NCBI GenBank assembly: GCA_003170135.1 | Contig: PMZR01000140.1 | Span: 4,382-68,381 of the forward strand | Direction: 5' to 3' | Source: Acidobacteriota bacterium | GTDB lineage: Bacteria > Acidobacteriota > Vicinamibacteria > Vicinamibacterales > Fen-181 | Length of the DNA stretch: 64,000 bases | Shown here: positions 5,437 through 62,127 of the stretch, in pieces | Layout: the number at the start of each line of letters is the position of its first letter | How positions within the stretch are numbered: position 1 is the first letter of the stretch | Notes under the pieces: model-generated | Seen by the model: only the letters and a program-made list of their open reading frames with translations | What the model was told of the DNA's origin: nothing | Database searches by the model: none | Translations under genes and position numbers: made by a program

Positions 5437-6333
5437 GTGGAATCGGACCGCGACAAGCTGCAGGCCGCATGGCGGCGCCACGAGCGCCGCTTTGCCGACA
5501 ACCTCTACGTCTACGCGGTCGTGTCGCGACGCAGCGGCGGCGTGTCGGTCGGCATCAACCTGAATCCGGGCAAGGAGTGCAATTTCGATTGCGTGTACTG
5601 CCAGGTGGACCGGACGACGCCCGCGGTCACGCGCAAGGTGGATCTGGTACGCCTGGCCGCGGAACTCGACCGCGTGCTCGCCGCGGAACACGACGGCTCG
5701 CTCTACCAGGCGATGCCCTTCGCCGTGCTGGCGGCCGATCGGCGCGGCGTGCGCGACATCGCCTTCTCGGGCGACGGCGAGCCGACGACGTATCGTCGAT
5801 TCGGCGACGCGGTGCGGATTGCCGCCGACGCGCGCCGCCGGTTCGGGCTCGACGCCACCAAGCTCGTGTTGATTACCGACTCGGCGTACCTCGCGAAGCC
5901 CGCCGTACGTGACGGGCTGGTCTTGATGGACGCGAACAACGGGGAGGTGTGGGCGAAACTCGACGCGGGTACCGAGGAGTACCTGCGCCTGGTCGATCGG
6001 CCGAACGTGTCGCTGCAGGTTCTGCTCGACAACATCCTGGCGACCGCCCGCGTGCGCCCGATCGTGATCCAGACGCTCTGGCTGCGCGTGAACGGCGAGC
6101 CGCCGCCGCCGGCCGAGATCGACGCGTATTGCGCGAGGGTGAACGATCTCGTCGGGGCGGGCGCGCAGATGAAGGCGATCCAGCTTCACACGATCGCGCG
6201 CGCGCCGGCCGAACGGTTCGCGGCGCCGCTCTCCGACGGAGCGCTCGATGCGATCGCCGCCGTCGTCGCCGCGCGCGTGCCCGTGCCGATTGAGAAGTTC
6301 TACGGGATACAGATCGACGAGGCGAACCAGTAG
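5437..6333 (+). CDS. radical SAM protein
   Basis: CNFDCVYC (CxxxCxxC) about 50 aa from the N-terminus, followed by the glycine-rich FSGDGEPT. GTG start. Confidence 0.8.
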   Translation: MESDRDKLQAAWRRHERRFADNLYVYAVVSRRSGGVSVGINLNPGKECNFDCVYCQVDRTTPAVTRKVDLVRLAAELDRVLAAEHDGSLYQAMPFAVLAADRRGVRDIAFSGDGEPTTYRRFGDAVRIAADARRRFGLDATKLVLITDSAYLAKPAVRDGLVLMDANNGEVWAKLDAGTEEYLRLVDRPNVSLQVLLDNILATARVRPIVIQTLWLRVNGEPPPPAEIDAYCARVNDLVGAGAQMKAIQLHTIARAPAERFAAPLSDGALDAIAAVVAARVPVPIEKFYGIQIDEANQ

Positions 6334-6400
6334 TCAGTAGTCAGTAGACAGTAGTCAGTAGACAGTAGTCAGTAGACAGTAGTCAGTAAACGGTAGACGG
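6331..6400. repeat. heptamer tandem array, 10 units TAGTCAG/TAGACAG
   Basis: Read directly. The first unit contains the TAG stop of the radical SAM gene. Confidence 0.95.
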
Positions 6401-6461
6401 CGTGTCACGAGATGCCTGCGCCGTTCCACGGCCCAGTGCGAGCCCAGCCCAGCACCCCGCA

Positions 6462-6496
6462 CCCTACTCCCTACTGCCTACTCTCTACTGTCTACT
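6462..6496. repeat. heptamer tandem array, 5 units NNCTACT (complement of the 6331 array)
   Basis: ccctact ccctact gcctact ctctact gtctact. This is the inverted partner of 6331-6400 and ends 19 nt from the stop of the convergent gene. Confidence 0.9.
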
Positions 6497-6514
6497 GTTT
6501 CCTGTTCCACGCGT

Positions 6515-8404
6515 TCAATTCGTCGTCTTCCTCGCCGCAGCGGGCACCTTGACCATCGCAGCCTGCAGCACGCGCCGCACAGGCGACGGCGCCTCGGCCC
6601 TGCCGCCGCCCGCCTGCGCGCCGGCCGCGGGCGTGTCGGCCGCGGCCGTGGCAGCCTTGTCCTGCGCCGGATCCTCATCCTGCACGAAGGCCACCACCAG
6701 CAGTCGCGACGCGTCGATGTCGTCCCTGCGCCCGTCGGTGAAGGTCGGCTTGTCGCCGCCGCGGAAGGGCTTCGAGAGGAACTCGTCGATGGCCTTCCGG
6801 TTGTCGGCCAGGATCTTCGCCAGGTCGAACACGTGCTCGACCTTCGCGCCCTTCTTGGCGTCCACGGCGAAGCCCTTGCTGTCGGCGCCCGCGAGGCTGC
6901 GCACCACCATCGGGTGGAAGCGGATTCCGTTCGGCCCGCTGTAGCGCTGCTGCTCCTCCACCAGCGCGATCTGCAGCTTCAGCTTGCTCGATGCGCTGGC
7001 GATCCGGCTGACGTCGGCCGTCACGCGAATCGCCGATCCAACCAACGCGGCATTCAGCTTGATCTGCGCCTCGGGCGCGACGGCCAGCTGCTTCTCGACG
7101 ACCGGGTTGATGTCGTCCTTGAAGATCCCCTCGGCCGCGTCGGCGCCGCCGCCGCCCACCTTGCTCCTCCCGTCGATCGCGAACGTCGGCACGCCGCGCA
7201 GCGCGTAGATCTCCTTGCGCGCCTCGGTGGACGGATTGGTCATCGGGTCGGGCCCGGGAATGTGCTGGTGGTAGACGATGAGCGCCATGTCCTGGCGGGA
7301 GAAGCGCTCGAATGCGGCGTCGAACGCCATGTCGGCGCCGACGCAGGGCGGACAGGCCGCGCCGGTGAACAGTTCGGCCAGCACGAGCCGCGGAGTTGTC
7401 GCCTTCGGCCGCGCGTACGGCTTCACTTCGAGCGGTTTGGTGAACTTGCGGTACCTCTCGTCGAGCAGCGCCTCGAGGCCGTCGGTGGATCCGTTGTGCG
7501 CCTTCTTGTAGATCGCCTCGAGCGCCTGCCGGGTCGCGGCCGAGGCGCCACCGAGCACGTAGGCGCTCGCGCGATACTCGATCTCGCCTTGCGTGTCGCC
7601 TGCCTTCGCGCTCAGATCGGCCAGCGCCGCCGCCACCGTCCGTCGCGTGGCAGGCACATCAGCCGCCCAGGCCTCTCTGAGGGTCTTCTCGGCCTCGGCT
7701 GTCTTGCCGCGCTTCAGGTAGATCTGACCGAGCGTCGACAGCGCGCTCACGTGCGTCGTCTTGAACTGGCTTCGCAGGTTGTCGTCGCTGACCTCGCGAC
7801 CGGATCGGCCGCCTCGCCCGCCGACGGTCAACCCCTCCGTGTAGTACGACACACCGTCGCGTATCGTTCTGACGAGCGGCGTGCCCGCGGCGCGGGCGTC
7901 CTTGGTTGCGGCGATGTAAGTCTCTTCGTCGATGGCGGCCGCGCGCTTGGCGGCCGTCTCCGCTTCGTCGAGGAACAGGTCCGCGCCGAGCAGGTTCGAC
8001 GCGAACTGGGCCACCTCGGCCAGGTTCTTCGAGTCCGCGACCTGCTTTGCGAGCGCCTGCACGGCGCTCTTGTCGGCCCGCAGGCTCGTGGCCAGCTGGC
8101 TGGCCAGCTGCGTCCTCGCCACGCCGGCGGCCGCGCTCTTCGGATAGTCATCGATCACCTTTTGCAGCGCGGGGAACCTCTTCGCGTTGTCGGTGATCTT
8201 GAGCGCGTCGTTCAACGCGGCCAGCTCGGGCGGCTGGGTGGACGCCGCCTGATCCGGCTTCGCCTTGGCGTCAGGTGCCTGGCCCTGAACAGCCGGCGGT
8301 GCCTGCGCGGCCTGTTGGGCCGCCAGCGGACGCGGGGACAGCGCGAAAGCGAACAAGGCGACCGGTGCAAGCGCGCATGCGCCGGCCCATCGAATGCGGA
8401 TCAT
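6515..8404 (-). CDS. exported TPR plus thioredoxin-like (CPPC) protein, paralogue 1
   Basis: Signal peptide MIRIRWAGACALAPVALFAFALS. Helical repeat region (LGQIYLKRGKTAEAEKTLREA). ELFTGAACPPCVGADMAF...YHQHIPGPDPMTN thioredoxin-fold motif. ATG 8404 with GGAG upstream. Confidence 0.75.
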   Translation of the reverse strand: MIRIRWAGACALAPVALFAFALSPRPLAAQQAAQAPPAVQGQAPDAKAKPDQAASTQPPELAALNDALKITDNAKRFPALQKVIDDYPKSAAAGVARTQLASQLATSLRADKSAVQALAKQVADSKNLAEVAQFASNLLGADLFLDEAETAAKRAAAIDEETYIAATKDARAAGTPLVRTIRDGVSYYTEGLTVGGRGGRSGREVSDDNLRSQFKTTHVSALSTLGQIYLKRGKTAEAEKTLREAWAADVPATRRTVAAALADLSAKAGDTQGEIEYRASAYVLGGASAATRQALEAIYKKAHNGSTDGLEALLDERYRKFTKPLEVKPYARPKATTPRLVLAELFTGAACPPCVGADMAFDAAFERFSRQDMALIVYHQHIPGPDPMTNPSTEARKEIYALRGVPTFAIDGRSKVGGGGADAAEGIFKDDINPVVEKQLAVAPEAQIKLNAALVGSAIRVTADVSRIASASSKLKLQIALVEEQQRYSGPNGIRFHPMVVRSLAGADSKGFAVDAKKGAKVEHVFDLAKILADNRKAIDEFLSKPFRGGDKPTFTDGRRDDIDASRLLVVAFVQDEDPAQDKAATAAADTPAAGAQAGGGRAEAPSPVRRVLQAAMVKVPAAARKTTN

Positions 8405-8432
8405 GAGCGGACTCCAGGGGGACGTAGACATC

Positions 8433-10334: not shown

Positions 10335-10412
10335 GAGCGGGCTCCGGGGGCAGGGCGCGAACGGGGGAGGCGCGTATGTTAGCAGAGCCCGGGCACGGCA
10401 GGTAGGGCGGAG

Positions 10413-10466
10413 GTGCGGGGTGCGCCGTGCGAAGTGCGTGGTGCGGTGCCGGGTGCGCCGTGCGGG
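10413..10466 (+). repeat. heptamer tandem array GTGCGNN (about 7 units, single arm)
   Basis: gtgcggg gtgcgcc gtgcgaa gtgcgtg gtgcggt (gccgg) gtgcgcc gtgcggg, in a divergent intergenic region. Confidence 0.9.
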
Positions 10467-14004: not shown

Positions 14005-14013
14005 ATCATCAAT

Positions 14014-14062
14014 GTCCGGAGTCCGGAGTCCGAAGTCGGAAAGTCCGGCCTCCGAGTCCTGC
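14014..14062. repeat. heptamer tandem array GTCCGGA/GTCCGAA (about 7 units, self-complementary unit)
   Basis: gtccgga gtccgga gtccgaa gtcggaa a gtccggc ctccga gtcctgc. Starts 10 nt after the ferritin stop. Confidence 0.9.
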
Positions 14063-20560: not shown

Positions 20561-20610
20561 GCACCGAGCACCGCACAGCACCCCGCACCTCGCACCACGC
20601 ACGTCGCACG
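20561..20610 (-). repeat. heptamer tandem array (GTGCGNN on the minus strand, about 7 units)
   Basis: Plus strand: gcaccga gcaccg caca gcacccc gcacctc gcaccac gcacgtc gcacg. Lies directly 3' of the M14-like gene stop. Confidence 0.85.
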
Positions 20611-20615: not shown

Positions 20616-21887
<1,272 letters not shown>

Positions 21888-22049: not shown

Positions 22050-22061
22050 GGCGTTCCTACC

Positions 22062-22253
22062 GTGCGAGGTGCGAGGTGCGAGGTGCGACGTGCGACGTGC
22101 GACGTGCGTGCGGTGTGCGACTTGCGTCATGCCCCGGTCATCCGCACCAAGCACTCCGCACTTTGCACCGCACGGCGCACTCCGTACGACGCACTTCGCA
22201 CTTCGCACCGCACTTCGCACCGCACTTCGCACAACGCACAACGCACTCCGCAC
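22062..22253. repeat. large inverted pair of heptamer arrays (GTGCGAG/GTGCGAC left arm, NTCGCAC-type right arm)
   Basis: Left arm 22062-22126, about 9 units. Loop tcatgccccggtcatc. Right arm 22143-22253, about 15 units (gcacttc gcacttc gcaccgc acttcgc ...). Fills the gap between the permease stop (22257) and the small-ORF start. Confidence 0.95.
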
Positions 22254-22256
22254 TAC

Positions 22257-24145: not shown

Positions 24146-24196
24146 GGCGTTCTCCGGGATCGGGGGCAGGGGCGTGCGGGGGCGAGAATACCATAG

Positions 24197-24267
24197 TCGT
24201 TGGTCGTTAGTTGTTGGTTGTTGGTTGTTGGTCGGGGTCGTTGGTCGTTAGTCGGGGTCGTTGGTCG
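24197..24267 (+). repeat. heptamer tandem array TCGTTGG/TTGTTGG (about 10 units, single arm)
   Basis: tcgttgg tcgttag ttgttgg ttgttgg ttgttgg tcgggg tcgttgg tcgttag tcgggg tcgttgg. Lies in the divergent region upstream of pgsB. Confidence 0.9.
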
Positions 24268-24375: not shown

Positions 24376-25698
24376 ATGATTCTCTTCGCCTGCCTCGTCC
24401 TGCTCGTGACGCTCGGACTTTTCGAGCGGGTGGCCGTCCGCCGGGCGCGCGGCGCGATGCCCATTCGCATCCACGTGAACGGGACCCGCGGCAAGTCCAC
24501 GGTTACGCGGTTGATTGCCGCGGCGCTGCGGGAGGCGGGCATCCCCACGGTCGCGAAGACCACGGGCACCGCCCCGCGGCTCATCCTGCCGGACGGCTCC
24601 GAGCGGCCCGTCATCCGCCGGGCACCGGCCAGCATTCGCGAGCAGGCGTGGCTCGTCGGTCGCGCCGCTCGCGCGGGCGCCCGGGCGCTGGTGGCCGAGT
24701 GCATGGCCGTCCAGCCGGACCTGCAATGGGTGAGCGAGCGCGAGATGCTGCGGGCGACGATCGGCGTCATCACCAACGTGCGCCTCGATCACACCGAGGC
24801 GATGGGCCGGACGCTCGACCAGATTGCGCAGTCGCTGGCCAATAGCGTCCCGCGCGGCGGCGTGCTGGTGACAGGCGATCGGCGCGTCGCGACGGCAGCG
24901 GCCTCGCGGTGCGCCGCGCTCGGCACGCGGCTCGTCGTCGTGGCCGCGTCGGGCGACTTCACGGGGCCAGGTCGTGAAGAAAGTGGCAAATCAAGACCTG
25001 ACCCCATCTGGGTGGAGGATGCGCGCATCGCGCTCGCGGTCACGCGCGAGCTGGGCATCGCCGATGCGATTGCCGTGCGAGGGATGCAGAAGGCCGCCGC
25101 CGACCCCGGTGCGGTGACCCGCGGGGTCGCGACAATTGGCGAGCGCCAGGTCGCGTGGATCGACGCGACGGCCGCCAATGACCCGGAGTCGCTGGACCTG
25201 CTGATAACAGGGCTGAAGCCCTGTTCCACGTCAGGGCATGTCGAACCGGACTCGAGGGATGGCCCGGCAGCCGACCATGCGGCACCAGCGGCGACGGATG
25301 TGGCACAGGACTTCAGTCCTGTGCTCACGATCTACAACCACCGGGCCGATCGATCGGATCGCCTCCGCATCTTCGCCCAGTGCAGCACGGTGTTCCGACA
25401 CTCCGGGCAGGTCGTCGTGACCGGGGATCGGCCGAGCCTGTCACTGATGACGCGCGCGAGGCAACTGTGCCCGGGCATCGACATCCGGTTCGTGCCGCGC
25501 CGCCGCCTCGCCGCGGCGACCGGCGCAATCTTGTCCGCATTCCACGTTCCACCCTCGGCGTCGGACATTCCAGATGCCGGGCCCGGCGGCGACGATCCGA
25601 TGGTCATCTTCTGCGGCAACACGCGTGGCTTCGTTCGCCCCTTTTCCGCGAACGTGGACACCGGACACCGGACTCCGGACTCCGGACAGATTCCTTGA
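24376..25698 (+). CDS. pgsB: poly-gamma-glutamate synthase PgsB/CapB
   Basis: VNGTRGKSTVTRLIAAALREAG (Mur-ligase P-loop), ECMAVQPD, TNVRLDH and NHRADRSDR match my memory of Bacillus PgsB. It contains three palindromic elements and a 3'-terminal heptamer array in frame. Confidence 0.88.
   Translation: MILFACLVLLVTLGLFERVAVRRARGAMPIRIHVNGTRGKSTVTRLIAAALREAGIPTVAKTTGTAPRLILPDGSERPVIRRAPASIREQAWLVGRAARAGARALVAECMAVQPDLQWVSEREMLRATIGVITNVRLDHTEAMGRTLDQIAQSLANSVPRGGVLVTGDRRVATAAASRCAALGTRLVVVAASGDFTGPGREESGKSRPDPIWVEDARIALAVTRELGIADAIAVRGMQKAAADPGAVTRGVATIGERQVAWIDATAANDPESLDLLITGLKPCSTSGHVEPDSRDGPAADHAAPAATDVAQDFSPVLTIYNHRADRSDRLRIFAQCSTVFRHSGQVVVTGDRPSLSLMTRARQLCPGIDIRFVPRRRLAAATGAILSAFHVPPSASDIPDAGPGGDDPMVIFCGNTRGFVRPFSANVDTGHRTPDSGQIP
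24963..25011. repeat. REP-like palindromic element, type 1, embedded in frame in pgsB
   Basis: ggggccaggtcgtgaagaaagtggcaaatcaagacctgaccccatctgg, about 5 mismatches from the intergenic copy at 12733-12781. Encodes GPGREESGKSRPDPIW. Confidence 0.85.
25207..25224. repeat. short palindrome ACAGGGC-TGAA-GCCCTGT inside pgsB
   Basis: Perfect 7-bp stem with a 4-nt loop, read directly. A variant of the type 2 element. Confidence 0.8.
25303..25324. repeat. REP-like palindrome, type 2 (GCACAGGAC-TTCA-GTCCTGTGC) inside pgsB
   Basis: Identical over 25 nt (gtggcacaggacttcagtcctgtgc) to the copy at 63569-63593. Encodes AQDFSPV. Confidence 0.9.
25656..25690 (+). repeat. heptamer tandem array GGACACC/GGACTCC (5 units) forming the last codons of pgsB
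   Basis: ggacacc ggacacc ggactcc ggactcc ggacaga. Translated as DTGHRTPDSGQ. Confidence 0.9.
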
Positions 25699-28061: not shown

Positions 28062-28066
28062 GAACG

Positions 28067-28163
28067 GGCTCAAGGCTCAGGGCTTAAGGCTCACGGCTTT
28101 TTGGGGCCTCGAGGCCCTGAGCCGAGGCAGGCCCTGAGCCCTGAGCCTTAAGCCGTAAGCCGT
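28067..28163. repeat. inverted pair of heptamer arrays (GGCTCAN x5 / GCCCTGA-GCCTTAA-GCCGTAA x6)
   Basis: Left: ggctcaa ggctcag ggcttaa ggctcac ggctttt. Centre: palindrome gggcctcgaggccc. Right: gccctga gccgagg cag gccctga gccctga gccttaa gccgtaa gccgt. Confidence 0.9.
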
Positions 28164-37504: not shown

Positions 37505-37586
37505 GCGTCACCTTTTGAATGGCGGGGGCCCGAACAGGAAATACCACGACCGGTGGCGAGGATGCAAATGGGGGCAGGCGGGGCAG

Positions 37587-37662
37587 GTGCGGGGTGCGGT
37601 GTGCGACGTGCAGGGTGCGACGTGCGAAATGCGGAGTGCGCCGTCGAGGTGCGAAGTGCGAC
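37587..37662 (+). repeat. heptamer tandem array GTGCGNN (about 11 units, single arm)
   Basis: gtgcggg gtgcggt gtgcgac gtgcagg gtgcgac gtgcgaa atgcgga gtgcgcc gtcgag gtgcgaa gtgcgac. Confidence 0.9.
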
Positions 37663-37895
37663 GTCCCGGAGCCCGCGGTCCCGTGCGAACCGGGCCACCG
37701 GCGAGAGCCGTAGAGTCAGGGCAAGCGGCAGGCGTCGAAACCTGCGGCGGAGGCCACCGGGCACCATGGCGTGGGGATGGGGGCGACACCGAAGTCACCA
37801 CCCCGCGCCGTTCGCCGATCGATGAGCCGACGTCGCAGGTTTGCCGGGGACTGGGCTCGAGCGGTGGCCCGGCTCGCGCGGGACCGGTCCGCTGC

Positions 37896-37923
37896 GTGCA
37901 AAGTGCAATGTGCGACGTGCTGT
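37896..37923 (+). repeat. heptamer tandem array GTGCAAN/GTGCGAC (4 units), same orientation as 37587
   Basis: gtgcaaa gtgcaat gtgcgac gtgctgt. Confidence 0.8.
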
Positions 37924-39818: not shown

Positions 39819-39833
39819 TCGGCTAGTCGCACC

Positions 39834-39875
39834 AAGGACCAAGGACCAAGGACCAGGGACCAGGGACCAGAGACC
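39834..39875 (+). repeat. heptamer tandem array AAGGACC/AGGGACC (6 units) ending at the next start codon
   Basis: aaggacc aaggacc aaggacc agggacc agggacc agagacc, followed directly by ATG 39876. Confidence 0.95.
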
Positions 39876-41126
39876 ATGCCCATCGACACACTGTTCCTCG
39901 ACGCGGGCGGCGTCCTGGTGTTTCCGAACTGGGCGCGGGTGAGCGAGGTGCTGGCGCGTCACGGCGTCCGCGCCGATGCGCACGCGCTGGCCGCAGCCGA
40001 GCCGCACGTCAAGCGCCAGATCGACGTCGCCGACATCATCTCGACGACCGATGACAAGCAGCGCGGCTGGCGATACTTCGACTTGATCTTCGAACGGATC
40101 GGCGTCCCGTCGAGCGACGCCACCGCTGCGGCCGTAGGCGAGCTCTACCAGTATCACCAGGCGCTGAATCTGTGGGAATGCGTGCCCGAGACGGTCGAGG
40201 CGCGGCTGCGTGACCTCCGACGGCTCGGACTGCGCCTGGCGGTTGTGTCGAACGCGAACGGCCGGTTGGGCGTGGTGTTCGAGCGCCTGGGCCTCGCGAA
40301 GTACTTCGACTGCCTGATCGATTCGTTCCACGAGGGCGTCGAGAAGCCCGATCCGCGGCTGTTCGAGATCGCCTTGTCGCGCTGCGGCGCACGCGCCGAG
40401 CGCACCCTTCACGTCGGGGATCTCTATCACGTGGACGTCGTCGGCGCTCGGGCCGCGGGGCTCTCGGCGGTGCTGTTCGACGCCGCGGATCTCTATGGGG
40501 ACGTCGACTGTCCCCGCGTGCGATCGCTCGAAGACCTCGTCCGGATGCTCGGTGGGGCAGGTGGGGGCCCCGCCATCCAGGAGAAGCCCGAACGCGTGCC
40601 GTATCGTGTTACCGATCTGGCGGCGTCCTACGATCCGATCCGCACGCTGCCTGTCGCGGTGGTGCTCGACAACGTGCGCAGCGCCTACAACGTCGGCGCG
40701 TTTTTTCGGACGGCCGACGGCGTCCGGGCGGAGAAGCTATACCTGTGCGGGTTCACCGCGCGGCCGCCGCACGCAATGGTCGCCAAGACCGCGCTCGGTG
40801 CCGAGGCCTCGGTCGCCTGGCAGGGCGAGAGCGAGGCGGTTGAGATCATCCGCGCGCTGACGTCCCGTGGCTACGAGATTGCGGCCATCGAGACCAGCCT
40901 GCAAGCGGTGGATTTGTTCGAGTGGCGTCCGGCCTTCCCGGTCTGCGTCGTCTTCGGGCACGAAGTGGACGGCCTGCCACCGAAGATCCTCGACACGTGC
41001 GACGCCCGCATCCGCATACCCATGCTCGGTTCGAAGCACTCGCTCAATGTCGCCACGGCCGGGGGCGTGGTGCTCTACGAACTGCTCCGCAAATACCGGC
41101 TGCTCGGTGGCAGGGATGGCGGGTAG
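39876..41126 (+). CDS. HAD-superfamily hydrolase fused to a SpoU/TrmH-family RNA 2'-O-methyltransferase
   Basis: N-terminal DAGGVL (DxD-type motif I), VVSNANG, EKPDPRLF and GDLYHVDVVGA. C-terminal VLDNVRSAYNVGAFFRTAD, VFGHEVDGL and SLNVATAGGVVLYE SPOUT motifs. Confidence 0.8.
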   Translation: MPIDTLFLDAGGVLVFPNWARVSEVLARHGVRADAHALAAAEPHVKRQIDVADIISTTDDKQRGWRYFDLIFERIGVPSSDATAAAVGELYQYHQALNLWECVPETVEARLRDLRRLGLRLAVVSNANGRLGVVFERLGLAKYFDCLIDSFHEGVEKPDPRLFEIALSRCGARAERTLHVGDLYHVDVVGARAAGLSAVLFDAADLYGDVDCPRVRSLEDLVRMLGGAGGGPAIQEKPERVPYRVTDLAASYDPIRTLPVAVVLDNVRSAYNVGAFFRTADGVRAEKLYLCGFTARPPHAMVAKTALGAEASVAWQGESEAVEIIRALTSRGYEIAAIETSLQAVDLFEWRPAFPVCVVFGHEVDGLPPKILDTCDARIRIPMLGSKHSLNVATAGGVVLYELLRKYRLLGGRDGG

Positions 41127-44359: not shown

Positions 44360-46105
44360 ATGAAAACGACCGCATCTGAACCTCTGCACCCCGACGGGCC
44401 CGGCCCGGTGCCGGACACCGCGCCGCCGCTCGACTTCATCCGCGAAATCGTCGCCGAGGACGTCGGCAGCGGCAAGCACGGCGGCCGCGTCGCCACGCGC
44501 TTCCCGCCCGAGCCGAACGGCTACCTGCACATCGGGCATGCGAAGTCGATCTGCCTGAATTTCGGCGTCGCGCAGGAGTTCGGCGGCACCTGCAACCTGC
44601 GCTTCGACGACACCAACCCGGCCAAGGAAGACGTCGAGTACGTCGATTCCATCATCGACAGTGTCCGCTGGCTCGGCTTCGACTGGGGCGATCGCCTCTT
44701 CCACGCCTCCGATTACTTCGACACGATCTACGAGTACACCGTCCAGCTGATCACGGACGGCAAGGCATACGTCGACGACCAGTCGGCCGACCAGATCCGC
44801 GAACACCGCGGCACGCTGACCGAGCCCGGGCGCGAGAGCCCGTGGCGCAACCGTCCGGTCGAGGAGAACCTCGACCTGTTCGCGCGGATGAAGGCGGGTG
44901 AGTTCGCGGACGGCGAAAAGGTGCTGCGGGCGAAGATCGACATGGCGTCGCCGAACTTCAACCTGCGCGACCCGGTCCTTTATCGCATCCGTCATGCGAC
45001 GCACCACCGTACGGGCGACACGTGGTGCATTTACCCGATGTACGACAACACCCACGCGATCTCCGACGCGCTCGAGGGGATCACCCACTCGCTCTGCACG
45101 CTCGAGTTCGAGGATCACCGCCCCCTCTACGACTGGGTCATCGAGAATTGCCCGGTGCCGAGTCGGCCGCGCCAGATCGAGTTCGCGCGGCTGAACCTCA
45201 CCTACACCGTGATGAGCAAGCGCAAGCTGCTCGAACTGGTGCAGCGCGGCGACGTCTCGGGGTGGGACGACCCGCGCATGCCGACGCTCGTGGGGCTGCG
45301 GCGTCGCGGCTTCACCCCCGAGTCGATCCGGACCTTCGCGGCGCGGATCGGCGTGGCCAAGCGCGAGAACCTGGTGGACGTGGCGCTGCTCGAAGACGCG
45401 GTGCGGGAGGATCTGAACCGGCGGGCGCCGCGCGTCCTCGCCGTCCTGCGTCCGCTGCGCGTCGTGATCGAGAACTACCCGGAAGGGCAGGTGGAACAGG
45501 TCGAGCTCGCGAACAACCCGGAGGACCCCTCGTCCGGGACGCGGAAGGTCCCGTTCTCGCGCGTCCTCTACATCGAGCAGGACGATTTCCGCGAGCAGCC
45601 GCCACCGAAGTTCCACCGCCTCGCGCCCGGGCGCGAAGTGCGGCTGCGCGGCACCTACTTCATCACGTGCACGGGCGCCGTGAAGGATGCCGCGGGTTGC
45701 ATCACCGAGCTGCGGTGCACCTACGATCCCGCCACGCGGGCGGGCTCCGCGCCAGATGGCCGCAAGGTGAAGGGGACGATTCACTGGGTGGCGGCCGACC
45801 ACGCGCTCGACGCGGAAGTGCGCCTCTACGATCGGCTGTTCACGGTGCCGAACCCGGCCGACGACAAGAGCGGCCGCGATTACAAGGAGTTCCTCAACCC
45901 GGCTTCGCTGGACGTGCTCTCCGGCTGTCGTGTCGAACCGAGCCTGGCGGCGGCCGCCGCCGGCGATCGTGTCCAGTTCGAGCGGCTCGGCTACTTCGCG
46001 GTCGATCCCGATTCGTCCGCCGACCGGCTTGTGTTCAATCGGACCGTCACGTTGCGCGACACGTGGGCCCGGATTGAAGAGGCGCAGAAGAAAGAGAAAC
46101 GATAG
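44360..46105 (+). CDS. glnS: glutamine--tRNA ligase
   Basis: [16 protein letters not shown] (HIGH) and VMSKRKL (KMSKS). Overall GlnRS pattern NLRFDDTNP and YDW. Confidence 0.93.
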
Positions 46106-46131
46106 TCCGGAGTCCGCAGTCCGCAGTCCGA
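46104..46131 (+). repeat. heptamer tandem array AGTCCGN (4 units) overlapping the glnS stop
   Basis: agtccgg agtccgc agtccgc agtccga. The TAG stop is at 46103-46105. Confidence 0.9.
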
Positions 46132-46280: not shown

Positions 46281-46315
46281 GTCGGGCATCGGGCATCGGA
46301 CATCGGACGACAGCG
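46281..46315 (+). repeat. heptamer tandem array (G/A)TCGGGC / ATCGGAC (5 units)
   Basis: gtcgggc atcgggc atcgggc atcggac atcggac. Ends 10 nt before the lpxD ATG. Confidence 0.9.
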
Positions 46316-53455: not shown

Positions 53456-53532
53456 AGTCCGGAGTCCGGAGTCCGGAGTCAGGCCAAGGTCTAAGGCCCA
53501 AGGCCCAGGGACCAGGGACCAAGGACCAGGGA
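53456..53532 (+). repeat. composite heptamer array, 11 contiguous in-phase units of three unit types
   Basis: agtccgg x3, agtcagg, ccaaggt, ctaaggc, ccaaggc, ccaggga x2, ccaagga, ccaggga. Starts 3 nt after the TAG stop. Confidence 0.95.
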
Positions 53533-53545
53533 CTTCGTCTCCGTC

Positions 53546-54388: not shown

Positions 54389-54679
54389 CTAGAGTTTTCC
54401 CCAGCCTCGCGTCAGGTAGTCGCTCAGCGACAACGCGAACAGGATGCCGACCCAGAACAGGCTCGCGCCGGCGACGACCCACGTGAGGCGCGTGCTGTAG
54501 CGCAGGTGCATGAAGAAGAGGACCACCAGCGACGCCTTCAGGACCGCGATGGTCAGCGCGACCACGGGGCTGAAGAACCCGAGGTCGAAGAACGCGACCC
54601 AGCTCGTCAGGCCGGTGAGGATGAGCAGCGCCCCGAAGACGGTGTAGTAGACGCGCAGCGGAACGATGTGTTCAGACAT
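54389..54679 (-). CDS. ctaF: cytochrome c oxidase subunit IV (caa3-type small subunit)
   Basis: 96 aa, 3 TM. HIVPLRVYYTVFGALLILT...VVLFFMHL is typical of the bacterial CoxIV/CtaF family. Last gene of the oxidase operon. Confidence 0.8.
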   Translation of the reverse strand: MSEHIVPLRVYYTVFGALLILTGLTSWVAFFDLGFFSPVVALTIAVLKASLVVLFFMHLRYSTRLTWVVAGASLFWVGILFALSLSDYLTRGWGKL

Positions 54680-54691
54680 GGATTATTCCAC

Positions 54692-54832
54692 GTGCGAAGT
54701 GCGATGTGCGACGTGCGACGTGCGACGTGCGGTGCGACGTGCGAGGTGCGGTGCGACGTGCGAGCATCCCGCACGCAGTCTGCACTCGGCACCCAGCACC
54801 GCACTTTGCACCTCGCACTCCGCACTCCGCAC
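54692..54832. repeat. inverted pair of heptamer arrays (GTGCGAN x11 / NNCGCAC-type arm) between ctaE and ctaF
   Basis: Left arm 54692-54764: gtgcgaa gtgcgat gtgcgac x3 gtgcg gtgcgac gtgcgag gtgcg gtgcgac gtgcgag. Right arm 54765-54832: ...gcactttgcacctcgcactccgcactccgcac. Confidence 0.95.
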
Positions 54833-54837
54833 AATCG

Positions 54838-57151: not shown

Positions 57152-57157
57152 AAGGAC

Positions 57158-58189
57158 CTACCGCTTCGGCATCGGACCCTGGGGCGGACGCGCCGGGGTC
57201 GTTTCACCCGGTCGCGGCCCCGTCGGTGCCTCGCCTTGCGGCTGGGGCGGGAGCGCCGTGGTGGCGATCGACTTGATGTACTCGATGAGCTGCAGCAACT
57301 GCTCTTCGCTGACGACGCCCTGGAACGACGGCATGATCGGCTGGAATCCCGCCACGTTCGTCCCTCCCGGCGTCAGGATGCACGTGCGCAGATAGGCTTC
57401 GTCGACCGTGGCGGCCTGGCCGTTCGCCAGCTGGACCTGGTGGCCGAACAGCCCCTGCAGCACCGGCCCGCGCCCCTGGCCATCGGATTTGTGGCAGGTC
57501 ACGCATCCGAGGTCCTGGAACAGCTTCTCGCCCGCCGACGCCATCGAGCCTTCGCCTGTCCCGCCCGCGAGCCACGTCTCATAGTCGGCCGGCGCCATGA
57601 CCACCACCTGGCCGATCATGCCGGAGTGTTTCGTGCCGCAGTATTGTGTGCAGAAGAAACGATAGGTGCCGGGCTGGGTCGGCCTGAACCAGATGGTCGT
57701 GTACCGCCCGGGCACGATGTCCGCCTTCATGCGAAACGCCGGCACGAACAGGTCGTGAATGACGTCCTCGGACGCCAGGGTCAGCTTGACGGCGCGGCCC
57801 GTGGGCACGTGCAGCTCGTCGATCTCGCGCTGGCCGCCCAGGTGCTGGAACTTGAACATCCACTGCTTGGCGACGACGTAGATGTCGAGCGTGTCGGAGG
57901 GCGGCGACCCCATCGAGAAGTACACGCCGGCGCCCCAGAAGAACATCACCATCGTCAGCAGCACGGGGATTGCCGTCCACAACACTTCGACGGCGTACCC
58001 GGCGTGGACAGGCTGGCCGATGTCGCCGCGTGCACGCTGGCGGTAGCGATAGGCGAAATACACGACCAGCGCGGCGATGAGGATGCTGAAGAAGGCGCTG
58101 ACGCCGACGAGGAAGAAGTACAACGCGTCGACGCGCCCGGCCATCGTCGAGGCGCGCTCGGGGAACACGGGGAAGAAACGCGGCCACAT
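57158..58189 (-). CDS. coxB: cytochrome c oxidase subunit II with fused C-terminal cytochrome c domain (caa3-type)
   Basis: CuA site FFCTQYCGTKHSGM and C-terminal CVTCH haem c motif. Two N-terminal TM segments. Confidence 0.92.
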   Translation of the reverse strand: MWPRFFPVFPERASTMAGRVDALYFFLVGVSAFFSILIAALVVYFAYRYRQRARGDIGQPVHAGYAVEVLWTAIPVLLTMVMFFWGAGVYFSMGSPPSDTLDIYVVAKQWMFKFQHLGGQREIDELHVPTGRAVKLTLASEDVIHDLFVPAFRMKADIVPGRYTTIWFRPTQPGTYRFFCTQYCGTKHSGMIGQVVVMAPADYETWLAGGTGEGSMASAGEKLFQDLGCVTCHKSDGQGRGPVLQGLFGHQVQLANGQAATVDEAYLRTCILTPGGTNVAGFQPIMPSFQGVVSEEQLLQLIEYIKSIATTALPPQPQGEAPTGPRPGETTPARPPQGPMPKR

Positions 58190-58195
58190 AGTCGG

Positions 58196-59167
58196 TCACC
58201 GATCGATGCGATGTTTCACGGACTCGGGGCGCGTCGTCGCGCCCGGCTGGTCTCGGCTCGTCGCCGGCGAGCCCGGCACGTTCGGCGGCGGCTCCCCGGT
58301 CTTCGTGCGCTTGCGCTCGCGCGAGACCATGGCCACGATGAACGACCCGAGCACCACGACGGTGACGATGCCACCCAGGCGGATCACGTTCAGGACGACG
58401 AGGCCGTACTTTCCCGTCTTCGGGTCGTAGTGGTAGCAGTAGAGGAGCACGCGGTCCACGGGCGTGCCGATGCGGCCCGCGGACGCGTCCACCAGCGCCA
58501 GCCGGAGATCGCGCGGGGAATATTCGATGCCGTAGAGATACTTCGCGAGACGGCCGTCGGCGGTGGCCACCATGATGCCCGACGCGTGCGCGTAGATGCC
58601 GGTGGCCTCGTCGTAGACGTAATGGAACCCGACCGCGTCGGTGAGCGGCTTGATCGACGCGTCCTGCCCGGTCAAAAAATGCCAGGCAGATGCGGCGTCC
58701 GCGTGCCCGTAGCGCTGGATGTAGGACTTCTTCTTCCGGGCGGCGAGCTGCGGCGTCTCACGCGGATTGAAGCTGACGGTGACCAGTTCGTAGTCGCTGC
58801 CCGGGTTGAGCGACATGCCTTTCATCGCGCCCGCCAGGCCGTTCAGGACCAGCGTGCACAACATCGGACAGTCGTAGTAGACGAGCGTCAGGACGACCGG
58901 CTTCCGGTGATTGAAGTACTGGGCGAGCGTGACCGACCGTCCCGCCTCGTCTTTGAAGGGCAGGTCGAGCGGAATCTGCGCGTTCAGCCGTTGATCGAAC
59001 GCGATTTTCTGCAGGTCGGCCGGCTGCACGCCCGCCGGCAAGTCGCCCTTGGACATCATGCCGTTGGCCGGAACGCCGTTGTACTGCGCCAGCGCGCCCG
59101 CCGGCCACGCGAGCGCGGCGGCGAGAACGAGTCCACAGAGCGCCGCTTTCATGGTCCTGTCCTTCAT
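58196..59167 (-). CDS. SCO1/SenC family copper chaperone with C-terminal TM anchor
   Basis: VLTLVYYDCPMLCT (CxxxC) plus a downstream conserved His region. ATG 59167 overlaps the upstream stop (ATGA). It is only the last third of the 912-aa ORF in the track. Confidence 0.85.
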   Translation of the reverse strand: MKDRTMKAALCGLVLAAALAWPAGALAQYNGVPANGMMSKGDLPAGVQPADLQKIAFDQRLNAQIPLDLPFKDEAGRSVTLAQYFNHRKPVVLTLVYYDCPMLCTLVLNGLAGAMKGMSLNPGSDYELVTVSFNPRETPQLAARKKKSYIQRYGHADAASAWHFLTGQDASIKPLTDAVGFHYVYDEATGIYAHASGIMVATADGRLAKYLYGIEYSPRDLRLALVDASAGRIGTPVDRVLLYCYHYDPKTGKYGLVVLNVIRLGGIVTVVVLGSFIVAMVSRERKRTKTGEPPPNVPGSPATSRDQPGATTRPESVKHRIDR

Positions 59168-59640
59168 CGCGTCATCGGCGGCTCGGGCCCCTTCGCGGGG
59201 CTCGAGCCCTCCGGCGCATTCGCCGTGCCCGGCGCCGCAGGCCCGGCCACCGGGAATCCCTGCTGCATCACCTGGTTCATCGCCTGCCAGATCGGGATGC
59301 GCACGGCGCCGGCCTGCTGGTTGACCCAGGTGTAGGAGTTCAGCAAGTCGTCTTCCTGCCTCCGAAGCGCCTTGAGGTCTTCGCGGGGCTTCAATTGCAG
59401 GCGCGGGCTGGGCGGCAGGCGGAGCTCGCCGCCCCTCTGCGCGATCGGGTACTCGCTCACCTGCGTGCTCGTCTCCTGGTGTCGATAGAAGCCGAACAAC
59501 AGCCAGACCACCAGACAGATCACGATCCCCGCGACGACGAGCGAGGCGCCAAAGCCGACGATGACGCGAATGTCGATGTCGCGCCCCTCGTGGCCGACCG
59601 CGGGGTCGTCGACGCCTGAACCGTGCGGTGTGTCGTTCAT
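59164..59640 (-). CDS. single-TM membrane protein of the ACIII/oxidase operon (possibly ActG-like)
   Basis: One TM (VIVGFGASLVVAGIVICLVVWLLFGF). Positioned between actF and SCO. ATG 59640 is chosen because upstream codons are heptamer repeat. Confidence 0.55.
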   Translation of the reverse strand: MNDTPHGSGVDDPAVGHEGRDIDIRVIVGFGASLVVAGIVICLVVWLLFGFYRHQETSTQVSEYPIAQRGGELRLPPSPRLQLKPREDLKALRRQEDDLLNSYTWVNQQAGAVRIPIWQAMNQVMQQGFPVAGPAAPGTANAPEGSSPAKGPEPPMTR

Positions 59641-59685
59641 GCCAAAGCCAAGGCCCAAGGCCGAAAGCCGAAAGCCGAAAGCCCT
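59641..59685. repeat. heptamer-type array GCCAAA/GCCCAAG/GCCGAAA (7 units) exactly filling the actF to next-gene gap
   Basis: gccaaa gccaag gcccaag gccgaaa gccgaaa gccgaaa gccctc. Confidence 0.9.
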
Positions 59686-60867
59686 CTAGTGTCTCTTCAG
59701 CGCGTTCGCCAGCTCCAGAGAATCGTGCAGCGGCAGCAACGGCCGGCTCGCCAGCTGCCACGCAAAAACGCTGACGAACAGTCCGCCGACGGCGATCGTC
59801 GTCGCGAAATCCTGCCAGCTCACCACCAGGCGCCCCTGGTGCGTTTCGGGCGCCACCATCCAGAACAGATCCAGCAGCCGCATGAACAGCAACAGGACCA
59901 CGACCGCGCGCAGCACCGGCAGGGCCCGCTTGGTCCGCCGCATGAGCAGCAGCACGAACGGCACGAAGAAATGGAACACGGCGAGCGTGAGAGCGATCCA
60001 CTGCCAGCCGACGCCCAGCCGGTGCACGTACCAGGGGATCTCCTCCGGCAGGTTGCCGGCCCAGATGAGCAGCAGCTGCGAGAACGACGTGTAGGCCCAT
60101 AGCATGACGAAGGCCAGCACCATGTTGCCGACGTCCCGCATCGTTGTGACGCGCAGCAGCGTCGAGAACGGGGCATCGCGCGACAGCTGGACGAGCACGA
60201 GGGTGGCGAACGCTAGCGCGCTCAATCCCTGGCCCGTCATGAAGATCATCCCGAAGATCGTGGAGTACCAATGCGGCTCGAGCGACATTACCCAGTCGAT
60301 CGTAGCAAACGTGATCGTGAAGGCGTAGAGGACGAGCCCGGGTGCCGCGAGGCGCCCGAGGCGGCGGAAGTAGGTCGGATCGCCCGTTCGATCGTTCTCC
60401 CGCGACCAGTGATTGACCAGGAAGGCCAGCAGCAGCCAGGCGGCGAAGTAGATGAGGGCGCGCACGACGAAGAACGGCACGTTCAGGTAGAGCGCCTTTG
60501 CCCGGATCGTCGCGTCCACGCCCGGCAGCGTCCAGGGATACAGCCAGTGCAGGCCCAGGAGAATCGGCAGGAAGAGAATGGCCATGAGCGGCAGCGTGCG
60601 CGTGGCGGCTTCGAGCGGGCGCCGCATGACGAACGCCCACACGCCGCCGGTCAGGTACTGCATCATCGCGATGGCCAGCGAGCCGAGCGCCACGCCCAGC
60701 CAGAACATGAAGGCCATCAGGTACGAGTGGAAGAACTGGTTCGGGTCGGCCATCGCGCCGGCGACGCAGGCGGCGGCGCCGACCAGGCCGACGACGAGCC
60801 CGGTGGTCCGGGCCCGCTGCAATCCCGCCGGAGGCGCGACGTTGAGGTCGAGGAGGTCGTCGTTCAC
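59686..60867 (-). CDS. actF: Alternative Complex III subunit ActF (NrfD-like membrane subunit 2)
   Basis: 393 aa, about 10 TM. Position after actE in the conserved actABCDEF order. GTG start. Confidence 0.75.
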   Translation of the reverse strand: MNDDLLDLNVAPPAGLQRARTTGLVVGLVGAAACVAGAMADPNQFFHSYLMAFMFWLGVALGSLAIAMMQYLTGGVWAFVMRRPLEAATRTLPLMAILFLPILLGLHWLYPWTLPGVDATIRAKALYLNVPFFVVRALIYFAAWLLLAFLVNHWSRENDRTGDPTYFRRLGRLAAPGLVLYAFTITFATIDWVMSLEPHWYSTIFGMIFMTGQGLSALAFATLVLVQLSRDAPFSTLLRVTTMRDVGNMVLAFVMLWAYTSFSQLLLIWAGNLPEEIPWYVHRLGVGWQWIALTLAVFHFFVPFVLLLMRRTKRALPVLRAVVVLLLFMRLLDLFWMVAPETHQGRLVVSWQDFATTIAVGGLFVSVFAWQLASRPLLPLHDSLELANALKRH

Positions 60868-60882
60868 AGCGCGTTACCCATC

Positions 60883-60955
60883 GTGCGAGGTGCGAGGTGC
60901 CAGCACCCGGCACACCAGCACTTCGCACGAGCACTCAGCACCCAGCACCTGGCAC
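60883..60955. repeat. inverted pair of heptamer arrays (GTGCGAG x2-3 / NNNGCAC x7) between actE and actF
   Basis: gtgcgag gtgcgag gtgccag | cacccggcacaccagcacttcgcacgagcactcagcacccagcacctggcac. Confidence 0.9.
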
Positions 60956-61542
60956 TACTTCGGCGCATCGTGGACCTCGTTGCGCTTCCCGGGCGGCACG
61001 TCGGCGATTGACGCCGCGGTGGTGGCCTGAAGCGCCCGGATGTAGGCGACGATCGCCCACCTGTCGCGGACCGGCACCTGCTGCTTGTAGTCCGGCATCG
61101 CGCCGAAGCCGTTCGTGATCACGTCGAAGAAGTGGCCCGCCGGCGCCTGCCGCAACCGGTCGACGTGCAGCGAGGGCGGCGCGCGGAACCCGCGGCGCAC
61201 GATCATCCCGTCGCCGTTGCCCGTCCGCGAATGGCACGGCGCGCAGAAGATGTCGTAGCGCTCGTGCCCGCGCGTCATGACGTCCCAGGTGACCGGGAAC
61301 GGGAACACCGTGGCAAGCTCACCGTTCACCTTGCCGGTGTACAGCACGTCGTCGCCTTCCACGTCGCCTCGCGCGACCGTCCCTTCGACGAGCGGCCGCT
61401 CCGAGCGGTGATCAGCGAAGAACTCGCTCTCCCGCAGCGGGATGTATTTCGGCTGGTCGTGCATGTCCTGCCGGCAGCCGCCAAGCGCCAGCAGTCCAAT
61501 CAGCCCGAGGCCTGCGCAGAGTCGTTCGCGGTTACGCCACAA
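60955..61542 (-). CDS. actE: Alternative Complex III subunit ActE (monohaem cytochrome c lipoprotein)
   Basis: Lipobox LALGGC and CAPCH haem-binding motif. TTG start overlaps the actD stop. Confidence 0.8.
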   Translation of the reverse strand: MWRNRERLCAGLGLIGLLALGGCRQDMHDQPKYIPLRESEFFADHRSERPLVEGTVARGDVEGDDVLYTGKVNGELATVFPFPVTWDVMTRGHERYDIFCAPCHSRTGNGDGMIVRRGFRAPPSLHVDRLRQAPAGHFFDVITNGFGAMPDYKQQVPVRDRWAIVAYIRALQATTAASIADVPPGKRNEVHDAPK

Positions 61543-62065
61543 CGTCCGACACCTCTCGCGGCGCCAGGCTCAGCAGGAACTGGCGCGTGGCGTGCGCATC
61601 GAACTTCGGATCCGCGGCTTCGATGCACAGGAAGAACCGATCGCGCGTTGCGAGCGCGAACCGCGGAACGTTGAACACCGGGTGGTAGAGCATCGGCAGC
61701 CGATTCAGCGCGAGCATGCCGAAGACCGCTGTCGCCGCGGCCAGCAGCACCGTCATCTCGAAGGTGACCGGCACGAACGCGGGCCAGCTGTTGTACGGGC
61801 GGCCGCCGACATTGAGCGGATAAGCGATGACCGCCACCCAGTACTGCAGCGCGAAGCCGGACAGGGCGCCGATGGCGCCGCCACACAGGACGAGCAGCGG
61901 CACCGCCGTGCCGTGGATGCCCAGCGCCTCGGTCAGTTCCTCGATCGGGAACGGCGCATACGCGTCCATCTGGCGGTAGCCCTCGTCGTACGCGCGGCGG
62001 GTGACGTCCACCAGCGTCTTCGGATCGTCGAATTCGGCCATCAGGCCGTATAACGGCTCGGCCAT
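61532..62065 (-). CDS. actD: Alternative Complex III subunit ActD (DUF3341-type)
   Basis: LYGLMAEFDDP..L......Y..GY...DAY.PFP N-terminal pattern plus two TM segments. ATG 62065. Confidence 0.8.
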   Translation of the reverse strand: MAEPLYGLMAEFDDPKTLVDVTRRAYDEGYRQMDAYAPFPIEELTEALGIHGTAVPLLVLCGGAIGALSGFALQYWVAVIAYPLNVGGRPYNSWPAFVPVTFEMTVLLAAATAVFGMLALNRLPMLYHPVFNVPRFALATRDRFFLCIEAADPKFDAHATRQFLLSLAPREVSDVVA

Positions 62066-62085
62066 GCTCAAACGCCTCGCGCGTC

Positions 62086-62127
62086 GTCCGGAGTCCGAGG
62101 TCCGAACTCGACACCGGACTCCGGACT
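62086..62127. repeat. inverted pair of heptamer arrays (GTCCGGA/GTCCGAG/GTCCGAA vs CCGGACT x2) between actC and actD
   Basis: gtccgga gtccgag gtccgaa ctcgaca ccggact ccggact. Confidence 0.9.

Follow-up and report, generated by a model that had tools for sequence, protein, structure and literature searches.

Heptanucleotide arrays in the spacers of the window

The stretch of DNA considered here, 64,000 nt of contig PMZR01000140.1 from an Acidobacteriota bacterium of the Fen-181 lineage (assembly GCA_003170135.1, positions 4,382 to 68,381; hereafter the window), carries numerous tandem arrays of 7-nt units in the spacers that separate its genes. The gene map of this 67% G+C DNA was drawn from codon usage and checked with Pfam and NCBIfam. 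The genes that neighbor the arrays are unrelated housekeeping genes, among them those for radical SAM enzymes, ferritin, peptidases, pgsB/capC, a LolA-like protein, thioredoxin, glnS, lpxD and acetyl-CoA hydrolase. An operon for alternative complex III (ACIII) and a caa3 oxidase occupies positions 54389-64000 and has arrays in five of its spacers. The first 6 kb of the window are free of heptamer arrays.

Arrays were detected with Tandem Repeats Finder (TRF) and counted only if they held at least three copies. The window contains 23 such arrays of period 7, totaling 1,054 bp, against a mean of 0.65 and a maximum of 4 in 100 dinucleotide-preserving shuffles of the same DNA. Other periods are nearly empty, with no arrays at periods 5, 8, 10 or 11 and a single one at period 6. 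The arrays consist of 3.4-15.7 head-to-tail units, and TRF also finds 14-nt higher-order periods within them, which fit slippage in two-unit steps. An earlier reading of the letters alone, the original prediction, had listed 17 loci with a strict 7-nt period; TRF and inspection of the sequence recovered all 17, positions and units included, and the counts against shuffles and other periods bear out the strictness of the period.

On the codon-usage gene map, non-coding DNA makes up about 11% of the window and holds 995 of the 1,054 array bases (94%), such that roughly one non-coding base in seven (about 14%) belongs to a heptamer array; together, arrays and loops occupy nearly the entire spacer. 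The original prediction had called the arrays intercistronic, confined to non-coding DNA, and set to begin 0-15 nt from a stop codon. The first term proved too narrow, because four arrays (10407, 24196, 37586 and 37895) lie in divergent spacers without an upstream stop codon and two loci sit between convergent genes; the placement is better described as intergenic. Confinement holds for nearly all arrays, the exception being 25656-25688, which lies inside the last ~14 codons of a pgsB-like ORF. An array edge is found 0-16 nt from 14 stop codons, with the stop inside the array at 6333 and 46105 and directly abutting it at 60955. One 16-nt string, GATAGTCCGGAGTCCG, occurs at both 46100-46115 and 53449-53464, the ends of glnS and of the acetyl-CoA hydrolase gene, and the array thus supplies or abuts the TAG stop of these two genes.

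The unit families of the window are GTGCG-NN, GTCCG-NN, CCARGG-N, GGCTY-NN, CAGTAG-W and GTYGTTG (Table 1). Units do differ between loci, as first noted, but they are less diverse than was implied, with two cores that are one base apart, GTGCG-NN and GTCCG-NN, dominating in about 18 of 24 window arrays.

Table 1. Heptamer arrays of the window, with the folded segment, its z-score and the genic setting
Array	Strand	Unit and copies	Fold	Setting and remarks
6328..6398	+	CAGTAGW x10	6320-6514, z -4.8	TRF; left hairpin arm between convergent genes; holds TAG stop of radical-SAM gene 5437-6333
6462..6498	+	CYCTACT x5	with 6328..6398	TRF; right arm complementary to 6328..6398; ends 16 nt from stop of 6515-8431(-)
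10407..10466	+	GTGCGNN x~8, degenerate single array	z -0.1	divergent spacer
14014..14037	+	GTCCGGA x3.4	14005-14070, z -2.4	small self-hairpin; begins 9 nt past stop of ferritin-like gene 13444-14004
20561..20609	-	GTGCGNN in sense of minus-strand genes	z +0.4	unpaired; 6 nt past stop of 20616-21887(-)
21781..21863	-	inverted pair GTCCGNT / GTCCGAA, each arm on own strand	21756-21896, z -7.0	hairpin (6 bp + 1 mismatch) between 50-aa membrane ORF 21897-22049(-) and 20616-21887(-)
22061..22254	-	GTGCGAS x7 + ~15 complementary units	22050-22256, z -5.6	largest locus; hairpin of -120 kcal/mol; begins 2 nt past stop of 22257-23549(-)
24196..24267	+	GTCGTTG / GTTGTTG x10.6, single array	z +1.8	divergent spacer between DUF6305 gene and pgsB-like gene
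25656..25688	+	GGACWCC x4.7, GTCCG family complement		in 3' tail of pgsB-like ORF; 18 nt upstream of capC
28066..28163	+	GGCTYAN x4.6 + complementary GCCYTRA units	28062-28184, z -4.3	hairpin; 5 nt past LolA-like gene stop, 22 nt ahead of BNR/sortilin gene start
37586..37664	+	GTGCGNN x~10, degenerate single array		TRF, sequence; divergent spacer, M28 peptidase / radical SAM genes
37895..37920	+	GTGCRAN x3.7, second same-strand array		TRF, sequence; same divergent spacer as 37586
39831..39876	+	ACCARGG x6.6		TRF, sequence; from 12 nt past thioredoxin gene stop to ATG of HAD-SpoU gene; repeated AGGA/GGGA Shine-Dalgarno-like motifs
46104..46130	+	AGTCCGN x3.9	46106-46325, z -3.5	holds TAG stop of glnS; pairs with 46282-46306
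46282..46306	+	ATCGGRC x3.6	with 46104..46130	distal complementary arm, 20 nt ahead of lpxD start
53456..53533	+	AGTCCGG x3.6 then directly CCARGGN x7	53454-53545, z -3.6	takes up 92-nt spacer between convergent genes
54690..54832	-	GTGCGGA arm + GTCGCAC arm (sense strand)	54680-54837, RNA z -5.2, DNA z -4.9	coxIII/coxIV spacer; hairpin of -92 kcal/mol as RNA
59642..59684	-	GGCTTTS x6 (sense strand), single array		TRF; spans actF/next-gene spacer, 1 nt past stop to 1 nt before ATG
60883..60949	-	GTGCT/GTGCG units + short complementary GTGCGAG arm	60868-60954, z -1.5	actE/actF spacer; weak hairpin
62086..62128	-	GTCCGGA x3 + complement	62072-62129, z -3.1	actC/actD spacer; stem of 13 consecutive base pairs, beginning 3 nt past actC stop

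Several other features lie beside the arrays. The inverted array pair at 6328-6498 is followed by two tandem paralogous ORFs of ~640 aa each, 6515-8431(-) and 8433-10382(-), which have no Pfam match and only weak NCBIfam matches, to an Omp28-related selenoprotein domain. The spacer of the 20561 array also holds, at 20507-20526, a perfect non-heptamer GC hairpin, GGCAAGGCCGAAGCCTTGCC, and simple hairpins like it are present at ACIII-cox junctions of L001, L084 and L085. The 50-aa ORF at 21897-22049(-) has good codon usage, is hydrophobic with apparently two transmembrane helices, and is flanked by the two largest heptamer hairpins. In the spacer at 37586-37920, an inverted repeat of ~26-38 nt, CGGTGGCCCGGYTCGCRCGGGACCG, at 37663-37700 and 37862-37887, flanks the two same-strand GTGCG arrays and may be an operator-like palindrome. 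Further afield, a thioredoxin-fold ORF (AhpC/TSA, Redoxin) at 12813-13343(-) has one in-frame TGA in the motif FFPT-TGA-PYC, a U-x-x-C replacing C-x-x-C, with a GCGAGG...CCTCGC hairpin ~11 nt downstream, and probably encodes a selenocysteine-containing oxidoreductase with a selenocysteine insertion sequence (SECIS) element. Finally, an ORF for a phage-type tyrosine integrase at 1585-3084(+) abuts tRNA-Gln(CTG) at 3085-3158(-), an arrangement typical of integrated elements, which commonly end at a tRNA gene.

Folding of the spacers and arrays in related operons

Each spacer was folded in the sense of its genes with ViennaRNA, and z-scores were taken against shuffles. Nine loci fold as extragenic imperfect palindromes with z of -2.4 to -7.0, and about half of the window loci are inverted pairs, in which an array is accompanied by one of the complementary unit. 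The stems of eight such pairs have z of -3.1 to -7.0 (Table 1), which bears out the earlier claim of inverted pairs in at least seven loci, the locus at 60883 weakly. The stem had been pictured as a series of 6-bp blocks with a variable seventh position, and ViennaRNA indeed returns runs of six pairs with the seventh position unpaired; DNA parameters give stems that are just as good. The arrays at 46104 and 46281, listed separately in the original prediction, are both real but form the two arms of one stem across 150 nt. The single arrays (10407, 20561, 24196, 37586, 37895, 39831 and 59642) fold no better than shuffles, and most of them either occupy divergent spacers or extend to a start codon.

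Relatives were gathered by way of ActD, giving 80 collinear ACIII-cox loci from species-representative genomes, nearly all labelled Acidobacteriota (best identity 73%), and 80 further loci from metagenomes that include closer relatives at 82-87% ActD identity; individual loci are cited below by L numbers. A survey of 1.76 Mb of non-redundant DNA, mostly Acidobacteriota ACIII-cox loci, found 133 arrays of at least three copies at period 7, compared to 4 at period 5, 42 at period 6, 23 at period 8, 59 at period 9, 3 at period 10 and 1 at period 11. Furthermore, 42 of the 52 period-7 arrays in the related operons lie outside the genes, which as defined by tblastn take up 87% of the span (p = 5e-29). 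Intergenic arrays of period 7 are widespread in Acidobacteriota, though uneven, with the window (36 per 100 kb) and L064 being dense. Four loci labelled Thermoanaerobaculia (L013, L016, L022 and L031; 68-71% G+C) have no period-7 arrays and carry only periods 6, 8, 9 and 12, so that the phylum as a whole does not share the trait uniformly. Triplets of units are lineage-specific: those of GTGCG are found only in the window and L081-L083, those of GTCCG in these and L064, and those of GTTTC are restricted to one Acidobacteriaceae clade.

The closest relatives (74-89% ActD identity) were compared at orthologous spacers, and the same spacers were found to retain arrays while the units change. The actC/actD spacer has arrays in 6 of 6 genomes, with the GTCCG family in four; L084 has GTCGG, with both arms changed to match, and L085 has other units. 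GGCTTTG occupies the actF/next-gene spacer in the window, L082 and L083. The coxIII/coxIV spacer has arrays in four genomes, three of them hairpins built of different units (GTGCGGA/GTCGCAC in the window, GATAGTT/ATCAACT in L082 and GTCCGGA/CGGACRC in L083) and the fourth a direct GGGGCTG array in L001. Over a wider range of relatives, 15 of 71 genomes have period-7 arrays at the actA/actB junction; in several families these are hairpins that follow the actA stop directly, and at least five different units are in use. The arrays in the SCO1/coxII spacer of the L058 clade have diverged past alignment between flanking genes that are ~92% identical. In that spacer, L058 and L130 have 7-nt GAACCNN arrays, and L093 (~7640-7690) has an 8-nt-period ATCACCAA instead.

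The closest comparison is that of L081 with L082 (99.0% identity over 5,315 nt), whose sole indel is one GACTTCG unit within an array. This is the only pair that is both close enough and array-bearing, as pairs at ~90% identity align poorly inside arrays. The actE/actF spacer of L083 is 39 nt long and contains CACGTG, possibly a single proto-unit, where L081 has (CGCACGT)x8.7, a difference that matches the prediction of in-place expansion or collapse. L081 (8075-8260) and L082 (3690-3870) also share a tandem duplication, with copies ~75 nt apart, of the right arm of the actC/actD hairpin together with the first actD codons (…CGGACGACGCGCGAGGCGTCTGATCATGGCCGAG).

Origin and possible use of the arrays

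We consider it fairly probable that the arrays are heptanucleotide simple-sequence repeats (SSRs) of the type of the short tandemly repeated repetitive (STRR) sequences, generated by slippage, self-perpetuating and kept out of genes, with hairpins that may act as punctuation of mRNA in the manner of repetitive extragenic palindromic (REP) sequences. Of the options raised in the original prediction, a slippage-generated class of variable-number tandem repeats fits best, as L081 and L082 differ by one exact unit. Like microsatellites, such arrays would grow, shrink and homogenize in 7-nt and 14-nt steps via strand slippage, and would survive only in spacers, as within a gene each step of 7 nt, which is not a multiple of 3, changes the reading frame. 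After it has been seeded in a spacer, an array would persist while its unit sequence drifts or is replaced, and would expand up to the flanking stop and start codons. In about half of the cases a complementary neighbor array would arise, probably by inverted duplication or a template switch at the DNA level, making the spacer a long imperfect palindrome whose transcript would carry a stable stem of 6-bp blocks. The most plausible use of such a stem would be protection or segmentation of polycistronic mRNA, similar to that by REP sequences and bacterial interspersed mosaic elements (BIMEs). We infer the slippage mechanism, the origin of the inverted arms and the cellular use of the hairpins from the patterns described above.

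A number of observations weigh against this explanation. The GTCCG-family hairpins have one arm of GTCCGR-T and another, on its own strand, of GTCCGR-A, placing a T.T or A.A mismatch at every seventh position, and they do so at non-orthologous sites in three genomes (21781-21863 of the window; 2365-2414, 3383-3479 and 8010-8066 of L081; 5928-5991 and 13356-13419 of L083). Plain inverted duplication would not give this mismatch, which might reflect an intolerance of perfect long palindromes or of perfect double-stranded RNA. Slippage alone makes no inverted arm, yet adjacent arrays in the related loci whose consensus units differ by at most one mismatch are inverted in 20 cases and direct in 4. 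The three unrelated hairpin units of the coxIII/coxIV spacer look like replacement, not drift. Random local seeding does not predict the reuse of two cores in ~18 of 24 arrays, and it is only in the closest relatives that the GTGCG and GTCCG cores turn up again at non-orthologous sites. The unit-step polymorphism was seen directly once only, in the L081/L082 pair. Array-free spacers that fold, taken up below, suggest that the hairpin itself may be the selected feature. Slippage also does not account for the spread of a family to new spacers, given a small repertoire of cores that is reused at unrelated sites lacking shared flanks.

This brings us to a second explanation, the main rival of the first and possibly an addition to it, which we hold to be clearly less probable, that the hairpins are the selected product: intercistronic or 3'-end stem-loops that block 3'-5' exonucleases or direct processing and set the stability of operon segments, and so the stoichiometry of subunits, with slippage only building and renewing them. 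The placement of the stems is as expected from this idea, 0-16 nt past 14 stop codons and with ~15-25 nt left before several downstream starts, and the folds are strong (z -3 to -7). Furthermore, arms stay complementary despite the change of unit at coxIII/coxIV, actC/actD (GTCCG versus GTCGG) and actA/actB, which means that they are coupled either mechanically or by selection for the hairpin. Among array-free spacers of at least 35 nt in the ACIII-cox operon, 25% have z < -2, where chance would give ~2%, and the ACIII-cox junctions of L001, L084 and L085 have non-heptamer GC hairpins; a stem-loop after the stop may thus be useful in its own right. Control of subunit stoichiometry by stem-loops also has a precedent (PMC4423207).

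Signatures of selection at the RNA level are, on the other hand, missing from the sequence. For 29 hairpins the direction of transcription is known, and in their sense strands G.U oppositions were no more frequent than A.C oppositions (24 versus 31, p = 0.42), a sign test per hairpin likewise gave no signal (8 versus 12), and the mismatches are mostly transversions. Single arrays, which make up half of the total, have folds that do not surpass those of shuffles, and 53 single arrays have no strand bias relative to transcription (GC skew 28:21, AT skew 24:23). These two sequence-based tests, of oppositions and of strand bias, give no backing to the RNA roles put forward in the original prediction (processing, attenuation, a protein lattice). 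Most related genomes have short array-free spacers at these junctions, and no U-tract follows the stems, so that they are not classic terminators. The lack of an RNA-level signature favors a DNA-level origin of the arms. Near-palindromic units were rejected as the driver of hairpin pairs, being present at 9.9% compared to 13% in random genomic heptamers; GTCCGGA is 6/7 self-complementary.

Three further explanations would have a dedicated factor or enzyme act on the arrays. In the first, which seems to us unlikely, the heptamer hairpins would be a distinct, self-renewing form of operon punctuation in Acidobacteriota, with lineage-specific pentamer cores plus two free bases written directly after stop codons, both arms replaced together and the seventh-position mismatch kept, through an undescribed copying mechanism or trans-acting factor; if true, such a mechanism might also explain the bacterial preference for a 7-nt repeat period. 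The spread of families to new spacers, the exchange of whole hairpins for ones of unrelated units and the T.T or A.A mismatch lend this reading what little probability it has. In the second, less probable again, the arrays or hairpin modules would be non-autonomous mobile palindromes, copied by an enzyme encoded elsewhere as REP sequences and their hairpin-forming doublets (REPINs) are by REP-associated tyrosine transposases (RAYTs). A small lineage-specific repertoire of units at many unrelated spacers, the replacement of unit families at orthologous spacers, the one periodic mismatch of GTCCG hairpins at different sites and the identical 16-nt GATAGTCCGGAGTCCG junction that gives the stop codon of two unrelated genes are all consistent with copying. 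The modules, however, lack conserved termini, target duplications and shared flanks, vary in length by whole units, and are accompanied by single arrays of the same families without any palindrome. Moreover, the scanned window proteins include no IS200/IS605-type gene, the sole recombinase being the phage-type integrase beside the tRNA gene. A search for conserved flanks or termini returned only overlaps, array remnants and the one inverted flank pair 37663/37862.

The third, which we regard as improbable, has the arrays serve as a binding lattice, with a protein recognizing a 5-nt core once every 7 nt, the candidates being a cold-shock-type single-strand binder (~7 nt per monomer) or a DNA-binding nucleoid or regulatory protein. 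The units resemble a constant pentamer followed by two variable bases, variation within arrays is concentrated at two adjacent positions (0.654 versus a null of 0.602), several arrays abut start codons or occupy divergent promoter spacers, and binding of heptamers by CspB and a suspected heptamer-binding factor of Nostoc have been discussed (PMC4679880; bioRxiv 10.1101/2022.06.06.494920). A constant core with variable positions was nonetheless discounted as evidence of selection, as slippage amplifies single mutations, which is visible in the 14-nt periods and confounds the concentrated variation, and as a listing of units anchored on the core is circular with regard to core constancy. The units are, moreover, entirely different between lineages, even at one orthologous spacer, and the arrays have no orientation bias. 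A role as contingency loci, in which a change of copy number would switch neighboring genes by phase variation, seems to us hardly credible: copy number does change in unit steps, divergent promoter spacers hold four of the arrays, and two extend as far as a start codon, but most arrays follow stop codons, their neighbors are respiratory complexes, glnS, lpxD, thioredoxin and peptidases and not surface or restriction genes, and their density is far too high for a set of switches.

Known classes of element were ruled out as well, in agreement with the original prediction that the arrays are not CRISPR, single-consensus REP sequences or miniature inverted-repeat transposable elements (MITEs). 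Contiguous 7-mers without spacers differ from the 23-50-nt repeats with unique spacers of CRISPR, and no shared flanks or duplications surround the arrays as they would a MITE or larger mobile element. Intrinsic terminators are excluded by stems without T runs behind them, and a terminator scan of 44001-64000 found one weak terminator-like site in an array (59669-59652). At the gathering threshold, Rfam matched only the tRNA-Gln in the window.

Why many bacteria favor 7 nt as the period of long repeats has been asked since at least 2007. To this question the Acidobacteriota, which are abundant in soil and have few genetic tools, bring an independent G+C-rich lineage with dense repeats. Arrays in a conserved, collinear respiratory operon form a natural series for measuring array birth, growth and replacement, running from strain-level changes of one unit to full unit turnover at fixed spacers, and the ACIII-cytochrome oxidase operon offers a way to ask whether hairpins control the stability of mRNA segments. 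In practice, the arrays probably cause breaks in assemblies and would make useful markers of strains in soil metagenomes. Two features are of note: so many of the loci are hairpin pairs, and arrays persist at fixed operon spacers although their units turn over wholesale.

Comparison with known repeat systems

The original prediction did not recognize the arrays as a described class of element. In this it was mistaken, as heptanucleotide SSRs have been described (PMC4679880, PMC4692102) and the arrays agree with the SSR/STRR class in every structural criterion; among the papers searched, no description of 7-nt arrays in Acidobacteria was found. In prokaryotes, as Mrazek, Guo and Shah 2007 is cited in PMC4679880 and PMC4692102, 7 nt is the commonest period of long SSRs in many genomes, and heptanucleotide SSRs are over-represented in intergenic DNA, for which slippage has been hypothesized. 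The arrays of the window share with these long SSRs the period, the intergenic location and the attribution to slippage. A 2014 survey that included four acidobacterial genera (Huang and Mrazek, PMC4060949) reported a median score of 0 for perfect 7-nt repeats of three copies, that is, no over-representation. That survey scored perfect repeats, whereas the excess described here is of imperfect arrays at the level of the phylum, which is absent from that survey. In a mutation accumulation study of Acidobacterium capsulatum (PMC8717266), several 7-8-bp indels were in non-coding DNA, a suggestive finding.

The STRR heptamers of heterocystous cyanobacteria (Calothrix, Nostoc/Anabaena; PMC4692102, bioRxiv 10.1101/2022.06.06.494920) are similar in having 7-nt tandem units, several families per genome, intergenic locations that include spacers within operons, and variability between strains. 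They differ in phylum and in their units, which in the window are other, G+C-rich ones, and a large share of the arrays seen here are inverted pairs. The named STRR families have the consensus units CCCCAGT, TTGGTCA and CAACAGT, and the role of STRR-type repeats has been in question since 1990. Rotating or complementing the window units gives no match to these consensus units, and the window arrays thus belong to the class by structure only. Anabaena also has structured, variable spacers among its nif genes.

The GGGAATC / GGGGAYT (GGGNATC) heptamers of Xanthomonas and Nostoc are intergenic, vary in length between strains and are sometimes inverted pairs (Rehm et al. 2015, PMC4692102). As with the arrays described here, related species carry them between the same gene pairs, their length and sequence vary extensively, and some inverted repeats lie between convergent genes (PMC4692102). 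Unlike the window arrays, which mostly have no G runs and comprise several families, they form one G-rich family with G-quadruplex potential. The TAACTGA heptamers of marine Beggiatoaceae are intergenic direct repeats, often just upstream of start codons (MacGregor 2015, PMC4679880), as are the arrays at 39831 and 59642, which likewise lie immediately upstream of a start; they differ in consisting of a single unit, in being almost always direct (one indirect repeat among 170 sets) and in having 2-6 copies in a set.

If the hairpins are useful to the cell, selective RNA processing and stabilization with stem-loops (PMC4423207) would be the nearest working model beside REP/BIME. The window hairpins and REP/BIME are alike as extragenic imperfect palindromes that lie between cistrons or after operons, often a few nucleotides from the stop codon, and that fall into species-specific families. 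REP/BIME sequences of enterobacteria and pseudomonads follow one consensus over a fixed length of ~35 nt, lack an internal 7-nt periodicity and are linked to RAYT transposases. The heptamer arrays, in contrast, vary in length by whole units, use several unrelated units, have no consensus beyond the unit and do not share flanks. With these differences, REP/BIME would provide the best functional analogy for the arrays that form hairpins.

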